A stretch of 64,000 nt of DNA from Eledone cirrhosa (lineage: Eukaryota): NCBI GenBank assembly GCA_964016885.1, contig OZ024743.1, positions 375,100,001 to 375,164,000 on the forward strand. Reading direction: 5' to 3'. The translations under genes and the position numbers were made by a program. Positions 58,649-62,165 of the stretch are shown here, one piece after another. Numbering within the stretch: the stretch's first letter is position 1; each line of letters starts with the position of its first letter. The notes beneath the pieces are model-generated. The model was not told where the DNA came from and did not search any database. It saw only the letters and a program-made list of their open reading frames with translations.

Positions 58649-58699
58649 TACTTTCGCAATCTTCAGGTTAATAATATGAACCTGAAGATTGCGAAAGTA
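58649..58699. repeat. Perfect 21-bp inverted repeat with a 9-nt spacer
   Basis: TACTTTCGCAATCTTCAGGTT (58649-58669) and AACCTGAAGATTGCGAAAGTA (58679-58699). Confidence 0.95.
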
Positions 58700-58719
58700 T
58701 GAAAGTACTTGTTCAATTA
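58672..58719 (+). ncRNA. Minimal type I hammerhead ribozyme motif (family H1)
   Basis: Stem I TGAAC/GTTCA (extendable TAAT/ATTA past a one-base bulge), core CTGAAGA, stem II t-TGC-GAAA-GTA-t, core GAAA, palindromic GTAC, then TT. Predicted cleavage after 58710 (CUU). Confidence 0.75.
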
Positions 58720-58869
58720 ACACTTAGAATTTAATATTCTATCATACTATTTCATTATAATACCATTATAAATTTTAAAGGATTGTAAATAAAACGAGTA
58801 AATCAAAGTTGGAATTCCTCTTATTAATATAATCTTCTATACACAATCATACACACCCGTGTATATTTA

Positions 58870-59054
58870 CTCTCTCTCTCTCTCTCTCTCTCTCTCTCTC
58901 TCTCTCTCTCTCTCTCTCTCTCTCTCTCTCTCTCTCTCTCTATATATATATATATATATATATATATATATATATATATATATATATATATATATATATA
59001 TATATATAGATATGTATATATATATGTATATATATATATATGTATATATATATG
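58870..59054. repeat. (CT)n-(TA)n compound microsatellite
   Basis: Pure CT run to 58940, then a TA run and degenerate TA. Confidence 0.97.
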
Positions 59055-59303
59055 TGTAAGTATGCATGTATACTACGTACATACATATATGTATACAGAC
59101 GTACAGTAGCATGCACATATATATATATATATATATATACATATATATATACATATGCATACAGGTACACATACATATATGCACGTATCAGTTTAGCGGC
59201 GCTAACGTCGCTTTGTTCGTTTGTAAACAAACTGAACAGCCTGAATTTATGCCATACGGTGTTAAGGCAACCACGTCACCTTTTTGTTCAACACTGACAA
59301 AGG

Positions 59304-59348
59304 AACGATGTACTAGTTTCAAGCTTGTTAGCTATCATCAGCACCGTT
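59304..59348 (-). ncRNA. Minimal type I hammerhead ribozyme motif (H2 copy A)
   Basis: Minus strand reads AACGGTG CTGATGA t AGCT AACA AGCT t GAAA CTAG TA CATCGTT: 7-bp stem I, intact core, 4-bp stem II, palindromic stem III, GUA cleavage triplet. Confidence 0.85.
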
Positions 59349-59769
59349 TACCCATCTGCCAGATAGTTGAACGTTCGAAAGTATAAACTTTCCTTATGAA
59401 AATTAACGGCTGAGCAGCCTAATTTGCATATTGAGTGAGTTAAATCGGTCAGGCATACCGAAAACGATAAATTGAAACAAAATGAAAACGAAATTTCATT
59501 TCTCACTCTTAGTATGGCACTTACTTAAATGTAAGTATGCATGTATACGTACATACATATATGTATACAGACGTACAGTATCATGCACATATATATATAT
59601 ATATACATATATATATACATATGCATACAGGTACACATACATATATGCACGTATCAGTTTAGCGGCGCTAACGTCGCTTTGTTCGTTTGTAAACAAACTG
59701 AACAGCCTGAATTTATGCCATACGGTGTTAAGGCAACCACGTCACCTTTTTGTTCAACACTGACACAGG

Positions 59770-59814
59770 AACGATGTACTAGTTTCAAGCTTGTTAGCTA
59801 TCATCAGCACCGTT
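59770..59814 (-). ncRNA. Minimal type I hammerhead ribozyme motif (H2 copy B)
   Basis: Identical 45-nt motif to copy A. Confidence 0.85.
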
Positions 59815-59840
59815 TACCCATCTGCCAGATAGTTGACATT

Positions 59841-60225
59841 TACTTTCGAACGTTCAACTATCTGGCAGATGGGTAAACGGTGCTGATGATAGCTAACAAG
59901 CTTGAAACTAGTACATCGTTCCTGTGTCAGTGTTGAACAAAAAGGTGACGTGGTTGCCTTAACACCGTATGGCATAAATTCAGGCTGTTCAGTTTGTTTA
60001 CAAACGAACAAAGCGACGTTAGCGCCGCTAAACTGATACGTGCATATATGTATGTGTACCTGTATGCATATGTATATATATATATGTATATATATATATA
60101 TATGTGCATGCTACTGTACGTCTGTATACATATATGTATGTACGTATACATGCATACTTACATTTAAGTAAGTGCCATACTAAGAGTGAGAAATGAAATT
60201 TCGTTTTCATTTTGTTTCAATTTAT
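59841..60225 (+). mobile_element. H2 copy C, inverted relative to copy B (about 370-bp-arm palindrome 59467-60225)
   Basis: 59854-60225 is the reverse complement of 59467-59836 apart from one substitution and TA-run length. The spacer is 17 nt and the copy ends in (TA)n. Confidence 0.85.
59876..59920 (+). ncRNA. Minimal type I hammerhead ribozyme motif (H2 copy C)
   Basis: AACGGTGCTGATGATAGCTAACAAGCTTGAAACTAGTACATCGTT on the + strand. Predicted cleavage after 59913. Confidence 0.85.
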
Positions 60226-60400
60226 ATATATATATATATGTATATATATATATATGTATATATATATGTATATATATGTGTATATATATGTGTATATATA
60301 TGTGTATATATATATATATATATCTATATATATATATATATATATATATATATACACATATATATACATATATATATATACACATATATATACATATATA
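60226..60400. repeat. Degenerate (TA)n microsatellite
   Basis: TA runs with scattered G/C. Confidence 0.95.
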
Positions 60401-60650
60401 TTGAAGACTAAAATCCAAAGAGTGGGTGAAAGCAGCGATTCTTTGCTTAAACTTTAATCTGTTATTTTAATAAATAAATATATATATATATATGGCCTTT
60501 ATAACTTATGTTTATTGCTTTGGACTTTTTTAGCCCATAGAATTTGCGTTACGTTTCGCTTTTTCTACCCGCCGAAATGCGATTCTCGCTGAATATATAT
60601 AATATATATATATATATATATATATATATATATATATATATATATATATA

Positions 60651-61049
60651 AACGGAAAAATGAAACGAAATTTCATTTCACACTCTTAGTATGGCTGTTA
60701 CTTAAATATAAGTATGTATACGTACATACATATATGTATACAGACGTACAGTAGTATGTATATATATATACATACATATATATATGTACGTATGGATTCA
60801 CCGAACATTTATTATAATGCTCGGTGTGTTTGTAAACAAACATACCGTATTTAGCCGTAGTGTCCAGCAACCATCGTTGCTCGTTTGTTCAACACTGACA
60901 AAGGAACGCTGTACTAGTTTCAAGCTTATTAGCTATCGTCAGTAACGTATACCTTCCTGCCAGATTGTTGAACGTATATACTTACCTTATGCACATTAAC
61001 GGCTGAGTAGCCCAATTTGCATATCGGTGGGTTAATCGGCCGGGTGCAT
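60651..61049 (-). mobile_element. H2 copy D, diverged subfamily member
   Basis: Colinear similarity to A/B (GAAACGAAATTTCATTTC-CACTCTTAGTATGGC, TGTTCAACACTGACAAAGGAACG, ATTAACGGCTGAG-AGCC-AATTTGCATAT). The 3' end abuts (TA)n at 60592-60650. Confidence 0.8.
60905..60949 (-). ncRNA. Minimal type I hammerhead motif (H2 copy D; closing pair of stem I mismatched)
   Basis: Minus strand reads TACGTTA CTGACGA t AGCT AATA AGCT t GAAA CTAG TA CAGCGTT. Confidence 0.7.
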
Positions 61050-61467
61050 AAATATATAATTCAAAAGAACATCTATTTTATTAATATTTATATTTTAATA
61101 TTAATAACTCCGGAAAATTATTTTTTGTAGGGTGCTTCCAATCTACTGTAAAACTCATTCTTTGACATACTCATTGAATATTGTTAAACACTTTAATATA
61201 TACATATATATATATATATATATATATATAATATATTTAGACACACACAGATACATGCGGACACACACATATACATGAATGCATCCGCACCCAACCGTGA
61301 GTTAAGGGTGCCAACTTCACCGATGTTGCTCAATGAATGACTGGGACAGACCAATCCGGTTGAACCAGACTGAACCAGTATCAGAGTTAAAAATACATTA
61401 TGAAGAGAGAAGAAACATTTAGATATAATTAGTCATAAAATGTATCATACCTAAACTGCTCCTAGAT

Positions 61468-61557
61468 TCCTCGACTACGTAGTTTCGTGGCATAAACAAA
61501 AACAATACATCATAAAGATATAGAGTCCTTGCGAGGTCTGCCGACTTATCAAGAGGA
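61468..61557 (-). ncRNA. Type I hammerhead motif, U3-A8 core variant (H3 left arm)
   Basis: Reverse complement of the 62005-62094 motif. Confidence 0.68.
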
Positions 61558-62004
61558 TACCTCATTTTACTAGTCTCAAGAACGCGTCTACACGACGTGA
61601 GAAAGAATCCCAAAAGGCGGAGGGGGAGATAGTCACGCGATATAACGGTCGAGAAACAGAGTTAAGCCTCCTATAACCCCGAAGAAAATACCACGGAGGC
61701 GGAGGGGGTATTTATATCGAAGCCGTTTCTAAATATATTGTTAATAACTCCCTCTGGTCGAGCAATCTTTGAAGTGTGAGGACTGCTGGAAAGCTTCCAT
61801 TACTCATACTTCTCGTCTCCTTCACCACCTCTTCTACGGTTTCGATATAAATACCCCCTCCGCCTCCGTGGTATTTTCTTCGGGGTTATAGGAGGCTTAG
61901 CTCTGTTTCTCGACCGTTATATCGCGTGACTATCTCCCCCTCCGCCTTTTGGGATTCTTTCTCACGTCGTGTAGACGCGTTCTTGAGACTAGTAAAATGA
62001 GGTA

Positions 62005-62094
62005 TCCTCTTGATAAGTCGGCAGACCTCGCAAGGACTCTATATCTTTATGATGTATTGTTTTTGTTTATGCCACGAAACTACGTAGTCGAGGA
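62005..62094 (+). ncRNA. Type I hammerhead motif, U3-A8 core variant with a long stem-loop II (H3 right arm)
   Basis: Stem I TCCTC/GAGGA, core TTGATAA, stem II GT(c)GGCA...TGCCAC, GAAA, palindromic CTACGTAG, then TC. GUC cleavage predicted after 62089. Confidence 0.68.
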
Positions 62095-62165
62095 ATCTAG
62101 GAGCAGTTTAGGTATGATACATTTTATTACTAATTATATCTAAATGTTTCTTCTCTCTTCATAAT

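Follow-up and report, generated by a model that had tools for sequence, protein, structure and literature searches.

Back-to-back hammerhead-ribozyme repeats of a Penelope-like element and two retrozyme-like families in a (TA)n insertion nest of Eledone cirrhosa

The stretch analyzed here (the window) comprises 64,000 nucleotides (nt) of the 3.0-Gb genome of Eledone cirrhosa (assembly GCA_964016885.1, contig OZ024743.1; G000:C4:375100001-375164000) and lies 3.7 Mb from the contig end. Just past two satellite arrays, among (TA)n and (CT)n tracts, positions 58649 to 62165 contain a cluster of repeats bearing hammerhead ribozymes, which belong to three families (H1, H2, and H3). Judged by sequence, H1 is the pseudo-LTR (pseudo-long terminal repeat) of a 4.2-kb autonomous Penelope-like element encoding a reverse transcriptase (RT) and a GIY-YIG nuclease, and H2 and H3 are retrozyme-like tandem noncoding hammerhead repeats. 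A first-pass annotation, made from the letters of the window, had proposed that ribozyme-bearing families of the Penelope or retrozyme type are present and that the three are unrelated. Both proposals were borne out; the families have no sequence in common, and they differ in age. Searches with 31- to 36-nt ribozyme patterns revealed 5,533 (H1), 10,412 (H2), and 6,766 (H3) exact genome copies, compared with 0 matches for the reversed-pattern controls of all three.

The H1 insertion consists of two arms. The arm at 58671..58869 (+) is a 5'-truncated pseudo-LTR followed by the 39-nt tail of the autonomous element; it starts at position +34 of the short H1 RNA, which is neither of the two 5' landmarks of the family described below, passes an end point termed site A near 58828, and terminates at a second one, site B, near 58869. 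Its minimal type I hammerhead (58677..58715, +; core at 58682) has a U.U at the stem II base, a palindromic stem III, and the triplet CUU, with a predicted cut after 58710. The inverted stub at 58649..58669 (-) matches the short H1 RNA from +42 to +62 and is probably what an internal deletion left of an A-ended arm. It holds the 5' half of the ribozyme only, so that the outward-pointing H1 ribozyme pair described earlier lacks its second member, although the 21-bp inverted arms are present in the sequence. The (CT)n(TA)n tract at 58870..59054 is both the target and the spacer separating the H1 and H2 insertions. The H2 left arm (59055..59836, -) is composed of tandem 466-nt units with two hammerheads (cores at 59807 and 59341; predicted cuts at 59777 and 59311) and ends at its site A, and the right arm (59841..60225, +) contains one hammerhead (core at 59883; predicted cut at 59913) and ends at site B, ~60 nt past A; the triplet is GUA throughout. 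In H3, the left arm (61230..61726, -) is part of a 593-nt unit with a hammerhead (core at 61552; predicted cut at 61473) and ends at site B, ~165 nt past A, and the right arm (61725..62169, +) carries a second hammerhead (core at 62010; predicted cut at 62089) and ends at site A, meeting the (TA)n tract at 62164..62218 that forms the right end of the insertion. Both H3 hammerheads have the U3-A8 core, the triplet GUC, and a 59-nt stem II region. The inverted arms match at 59467-59836 with 59854-60225 (H2) and at 61388-61726 with 61836-62174 (H3). The inverted arms annotated at first are thus all real, but the left arms reach farther than had been recognized, to 61230 in H3 and to 59055 in H2.

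A type I hammerhead descriptor run over both strands of the whole window gave six matches, all of them inside the cluster, and reproduced exactly the cut sites proposed beforehand at 58710, 59913, and 62089. Seven motifs had been counted; six pass the descriptor, and the seventh, in an older H2 copy on the minus strand (core at 60942, intact; predicted cut at 60912), has an A-C mismatch closing stem I. The conserved core and an NUH triplet are found in the six copies and in the seventh, the H3 core being the published U3-A8 variant. Each motif has three helices with helix I open (stem I, 5 to 7 bp; stem II, 3 to 6 bp; stem III palindromic). In dinucleotide shuffles of 58501-62300, one match of any kind occurred in 2 of 500 sequences, and none of the 500 gave a match with a palindromic stem III. 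The Rfam models, which had been proposed as a check, did not recover the motifs: the hammerhead threshold was not reached, the best score being 18.5 bits for Hammerhead_HH9 (gathering threshold, 52; E, 1.4) at two H2 copies; the H1 and H3 motifs were absent from the best 150 of 155 Rfam rows, and the other matches are chance microRNA matches to the palindromes. Minimal hammerhead variants lie outside these models. The minimum-energy fold of the H1 sequence alone is a non-hammerhead hairpin. Pairing of the stem III palindromes is better across two copies than inside a single copy, which fits dimer action as published.

Ribozyme cores and stems are better kept than their flanks. Among 82 H1 arms, variation per cell was 0.012 in the core and 0.013 in the stems versus 0.036 outside, and a variant common to three loci occurred at 0 of 31 ribozyme positions versus 17 of 116 outside (P = 0.014). 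For H3 (68 units), the rates were 0.004 to 0.005 in those strands of the 5' core and stems that were free of selection by the search versus 0.017, with change located at the stem II bulge and loop. A scan of 650 kb of fetched loci (L numbers below), in which the descriptor demanded a palindromic stem III, detected at least four further multicopy hammerhead families, including one more with a U3-A8 core; these families lie at L096, L035, L077, L033, and L098.

Extension of H1 in the 5' direction runs into an open reading frame (ORF) for RT and GIY-YIG, as had been anticipated. Three loci (L098, L099, and L100) share sequence that reaches as far as 925 nt upstream from the ribozyme, and the ORF that they enter ends ~385 nt before it; the ORF matches RVT_1 (E, 3e-6; score 27.5, just under the Pfam cutoff of 29.6) and GIY-YIG (E, 1e-5; score 26, above the cutoff of 22.6). 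The full-length 4.2-kb copies at L187 and L188 have direct pseudo-LTRs, with an inverted pseudo-LTR on the 5' side, and show the order pseudo-LTR, short 5' untranslated region (UTR), ORF1 (449 amino acids [aa] from ATG), ORF2, and second pseudo-LTR. ORF2 overlaps ORF1 in another frame; by our count, 34 of the best 150 matches have it open over 775 aa. A CX2-5CxxC linker precedes the nuclease in the translation of L098; this form is given for both Neptune and Nematis in the accessible text of PMC8557442 (all statements about published systems refer to the accessible parts of the cited papers), and we provisionally class the H1 linker as Neptune type, a clade call read from the linker motif. The 39-nt tail of H1 is the start of the 5' UTR. 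At H1 B ends (L039-L067), a variable (TCTA)n or (CT)n precedes (TA)n; it derives from a short 5' UTR microsatellite, and its lengths suggest slippage during priming. An 8.5-kb inverted insertion at L208-L211 (G000:C1:21872148-21880604) comprises two full-length H1 elements, both with an open 775-aa ORF2 and both starting where the hammerhead of the 5' pseudo-LTR is predicted to cut.

The H2 unit (466 nt; GC, 0.36) includes an internal TA tract, and its longest ATG frame is 103 aa; the H3 unit (593 nt; GC, 0.43) has a longest ATG frame of 78 aa. In both families, array size ranges from a single unit to seven or more, with one type I hammerhead per unit. No coding partner for H2 or H3 was found in the fetched loci; judged by their footprint, they are likely moved by Penelope-type enzymes. 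Two candidate partners were rejected: the GIY-YIG frames beside H3 (L003, L004, L027, L029, and L033) are unrelated Penelope fragments across TA tracts, and a 2,908-bp spacing on contig C1, considered as a full-length H3 element, is a local triplication. Several Penelope-type ORFs of other clades adjoin H2 and H3 copies. An alternating variant pattern, as from a dimer template, was looked for in H2 arrays and not clearly seen. Of ~80 H2 5' starts, 11 lie within 23 nt upstream of site B, ~3 times the even share. L153 (3216-3512) holds a diverged H3-like family (74 to 83%) as a head-to-head pair beginning near the H3 cut-site position.

The head-to-head layout is the normal state of all three families, and all end in (TA)n everywhere. 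The 3' ends of each family fall at two fixed points, A and B, each of which lies at a TA-like word; the points are separated by 39 nt in H1, ~60 nt in H2, and ~165 nt in H3, and the two arms of an insertion divide these points between them. Hand counts of 51 H2 loci, 34 of them head-to-head, gave 24 that were clearly A+B, 4 that were compatible but interrupted, and 6 that were unscorable, with no A+A and no B+B. Among 52 H3 loci, 29 of them head-to-head, 27 were A+B and 2 had one arm ending elsewhere (L153, of the diverged family, and one duplicate in L159 were set aside). In H1, 30 of 33 pairs were A+B.

The relation between the arms indicates how such pairs arose. In a comparison of 130 H2 units, the distance was 0.015 between opposite arms, 0.015 within the same arm, and 0.045 between loci; opposite arms are as alike as same-arm units and closer than other loci, and both arms therefore come from one template, although the opposite arm was a better match than the nearest unit from elsewhere in only 9 of 21 loci. 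Private variants are also common to both arms of an insertion. The most viable alternative, which we nevertheless regard as unlikely, takes this likeness as the mark of a B-primed cDNA that snaps back and copies itself, with resolution at A and with unequal arms produced by later center deletions and unit loss. It would account for the private variants, for H1 arms that stop at the same landmark, and for the near-perfect hairpin junctions at natural palindromes (L146, L119, and L182), and Craig et al. (2021; PMC8557442) attribute the tail to nuclease resolution of an intermediate. The arms, however, are not simple copies of each other. The H3 arms in L167 and L180 have no sequence in common, and the starts of the two arms lie no more than 15 nt apart in only 3 of 27 H3 pairs. 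In H2, it is the arm without the tail that contains more units at five loci (the window, L109, L133, L138, and L144), of which the window and L109 are young, and in 4 of 10 unequal H1 pairs starting at the promoter, the tail-less arm is the more complete one. Together with the start sites reported by Frangieh et al. (2024; PMC11167929), this inequality favors priming from both break ends on one RNA.

The 5' ends of H1 arms bear on the RNA that was copied. They were sampled with a 32-mer that lies downstream of the ribozyme: 86 of its 100 listed matches, taken in C1 order and free of selection for the ribozyme, made 98 arms with their partners. Of these, 26 continue upstream, 52 start at -9 to +10, 9 at +11 to +70, 9 at +73 to +80 (in 6 loci), and 2 at +81 to +100. 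Common variants have a TATA-like box 31 nt upstream of the main start, a spacing typical of RNA polymerase II, and the main start is thus likely a transcription start. The predicted cut product begins at +74, and starts at the cut site occurred in six loci versus 0.9 expected (P, ~4e-4). These arm starts suggest occasional cleavage in vivo at the predicted cut. Among 23 short pairs, 15 were start/start, 5 were cut/cut, and none was start/cut; this count left out 8 long-arm pairs, and duplicates in L243 and L256 were set aside. One possibly mixed start/cut pair (L189) lies outside the 98-arm sample.

Taken together, these data lead to a reading to which we assign a probability of roughly 70%: the cluster is a nest of insertions in (TA)n, in which H1 is the truncated end of a Penelope-like element, H2 and H3 are retrozymes, and the arms were made by both DNA ends priming one RNA. 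The back-to-back arms were likely formed as both ends of the cut DNA copied the same RNA. Transcription would begin at the pseudo-LTR promoter, a protein would bind the RNA in the A-B region, and the GIY-YIG nuclease would break (TA)n; one RT would then begin at A and another at B, and the two cDNAs would be joined by microhomology. The A and B sites of H1 lie in the 5' UTR, just before ORF1, and priming there on a linear RNA would therefore reach only the RNA 5' end. Copies of promoter-started RNA would be about 200 to 240 nt long (most copies), and those of hammerhead-cut RNA, the less common kind, would be 125 to 165 nt long. Because H2 and H3 arms cross the cut site seamlessly and repeatedly, their template would be either circular or a multimer left uncut; a circle may come from cleavage and ligation that happen occasionally, perhaps with the help of a dimer or of protein. 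We advance tentatively, as a serious possibility, a broader form for Penelope-like elements and retrozymes: twin priming by a protein dimer on one RNA would be obligatory, with A used from one DNA end and B from the other, and most H1 events would yield short back-to-back copies, with 5' ends that mark where the RNA itself began, whether at the transcription start or at the cut.

Several observations weigh against the two-ended priming of one RNA or against cleavage as a part of it. Three H1 pairs were B+B, although one (L209) lies inside a larger A+B insertion and the others (L253/L254) are one duplicated locus. Palindromes lose their centers after insertion, which could mimic unequal arms. 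There is a 4-nt inverted microhomology at the H1 cut that could draw junctions by itself; a perfect 8-nt palindrome just before the cut shows no inversion junction in the sample. Cut-site starts were found in 0 of 20 regions picked at long H1 copies (4 without a match), and H2 and H3 arms have no pileup at the cut site. None of 97 Penelope-type 3' ends in the fetched loci matched H2 or H3 beyond TA-rich scraps; the genome holds many more families. With regard to the ribozymes, conservation by position is not significant in H3 (0 of 17 versus 24 of 347; P = 0.31), the cell-level P values ignore relatedness, and the covariation in H2, where a stem I pair is seen as G.U, U.G, and A-U, concerns one pair among 8 hand-picked rows.

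Some of these points would follow if the hammerheads were hitchhikers without cutting in vivo, the templates uncut read-through RNAs, and the arrays partly the product of unequal crossover after insertion. In vitro, insertion was unaffected by ribozyme mutants and 0 reads started at the cut (Frangieh et al. 2024; PMC11167929), and 8 of 9 dimers tested by Li et al. (2026; bioRxiv 10.64898/2026.07.22.740005) showed no cleavage. The weak U.U stem II, the CUU triplet, and the hairpin fold of a lone H1 point in the same direction, as does the lack of cut-site ends in H2 and H3. We consider this explanation quite improbable, given the clustering of H1 5' ends at the cut, which is seen in 6 loci and involves both arms in 5 of them; the conservation of core and stems; and the likeness of units on opposite sides of the inversion, which equals that of units in one arm and would be seen if every unit had been written at insertion.

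Besides H1, H2, and H3, three more repeat fragments sit in the nest. At 60424..60480 (+) lies a 3' fragment of a further dispersed repeat, with (TA)n at its end and 51 matches in 34 fetched loci, and at 60495..60592 lies a fragment of another repeat with weak matches in L126. The third is a 3' fragment of a fourth family (61047..61195, +), longer copies of which bear a hammerhead-like core. It is joined head-to-head, without a TA tract between, to the copy with the mismatched seventh motif (60657..61039, -; end near site B), which is 79 to 91% identical to the young unit. The four H2 ribozymes, annotated as one inverted set, are three from one insertion and one from a separate insertion of an older subfamily. 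Head-to-head joints of different families without a TA tract occur at 61030-61050 in the window (older H2/fourth family) and at 4500-4590 in L031 (H1/H3); both arms seem to end at the outer (B-type) site, unlike those of same-family pairs.

The first-pass annotation had regarded the cluster as an insertion hotspot, which overstates its singularity: each family has thousands of copies, the head-to-head layout is normal, and clustering is modest. On the first 54 Mb of C1, pairs of different families within 12 kb numbered 11 versus 4.6 expected from local shifts (P = 0.005), and those within 3.5 kb numbered 2 versus 1.4 expected (P = 0.41). That a special local hotspot or one composite element joined the three families is very improbable and largely refuted by the copy counts and C1 clustering: the six or more repeat fragments in 3.5 kb, the two direct joints between different families (61039/61047 in the window and L031), and the mild clustering within 12 kb speak for it, but the families share no sequence, differ in age, occur apart at thousands of sites, show no excess within 3.5 kb on C1, and have (TA)n ends everywhere. 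The locus, in which independent insertions share (TA)n as their target, is a nest rather than a unique hotspot and is itself ordinary, one of thousands.

To the left of the nest, an 84-bp satellite occupies 1-26059 (~311 copies; higher periods of 168 and 252 bp; strong purine skew), and an 18-bp G/T-rich satellite spans 28.5 kb (29579-58148; ~1,585 copies), has a GC skew close to 1.0, and decays into (GGT)n and (ATG)n. To the right, at 63126-63998 (-), lie the C-terminal 290 aa of a long interspersed nuclear element (LINE), with a zf-RVT match (E, 1.7e-5). Its 3' UTR ends near a (TA)n tract at 62733-62789, and close relatives flank L098, L101, and L103; it is another TA-associated family.

How inverted ends form and whether hammerheads cut in vivo are open questions stated in PMC8557442 and PMC11167929. 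If the broader proposal is true, hammerhead cleavage in vivo has left a record in the genome that can be counted, and, if twin priming is true, one rule explains the tail, the inversion, and the retrozyme arrays. An intact high-copy-number autonomous family and two retrozymes under the same one-A-one-B rule would tie retrozymes to Penelope enzymes by their footprint. A family-level footprint of this kind is useful for mechanism, and the predictions that follow from the A+B rule are sharp ones for the in vitro system already at hand.

The three families are new members of already published kinds of element. Minimal hammerheads in pseudo-LTRs, the U3-A8 variant, and opposite-strand pairs are known (Cervera 2014; PMC4209133), as are the inverted 5' copy with a one-sided tail (Craig 2021; PMC8557442) and retrozymes and their Penelope origin (Cervera 2020, PMC7229834; Li 2026, bioRxiv 10.64898/2026.07.22.740005). 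We found no paper on the H1, H2, or H3 families or on strict A+B pairing in a literature search that covered subscription journals little, and the supplements of PMC8557442 and PMC4209133 may list such families; ribozymes are not mentioned in the accessible text of PMC13282606. Compared with endonuclease-positive Penelope-like elements of the Neptune type (PMC8557442), H1 is alike in its RT with a C-terminal GIY-YIG, CX2-5CxxC linker, separate ORF1, direct and inverted pseudo-LTRs, pseudo-LTR hammerhead, and (TA)n targets; the tail at one end is 30 to 40 nt there and 39 nt in H1. It differs in that more than half of the sampled arms are short copies from a fixed point 44 nt before the ribozyme core. 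The minimal Penelope hammerheads of PMC4209133 resemble those described here in being type I with a short palindromic helix III, in the U3-A8 variant, and in opposite-strand pairs 100 to 700 bp apart; dimer action and a circular template were proposed there. H1 and H2 differ from them in having U.U instead of the usual G10.1-C11.1 pair, a replacement also present in axolotl HHR_Amex2 (PMC7229834), and H3 differs in its 59-nt stem II region and 10-nt palindrome.

H2 and H3 are like animal non-LTR retrozymes (PMC7229834; bioRxiv 10.64898/2026.07.22.740005) in their noncoding tandem units with one type I hammerhead each, GC content under 50%, and dispersal as monomers to multimers. Their units are larger than the 150 to 450 bp of PMC7229834 and fall inside the 51 to 972 bp of bioRxiv 10.64898/2026.07.22.740005. 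Unlike the retrozymes of these reports, H2 and H3 arrays combine the Penelope inversion with two fixed ends and have tails of 60 and 165 nt; they point to multimers written at insertion, whereas Li et al. (2026; bioRxiv 10.64898/2026.07.22.740005) favor later local amplification. The closest mechanistic counterpart is Poseidon of Anolis in vitro (Frangieh et al. 2024; PMC11167929), in which two internal reverse transcription start sites likewise define a tail, both DNA strands are cut and extended, the target is AT rich, and a dimer is predicted. In the accessible text of that study, there is no strand difference in the start site, inversions are unexplained, and cut-site reads are absent; here, each end of an insertion uses one site, and some H1 5' ends map to the cut.

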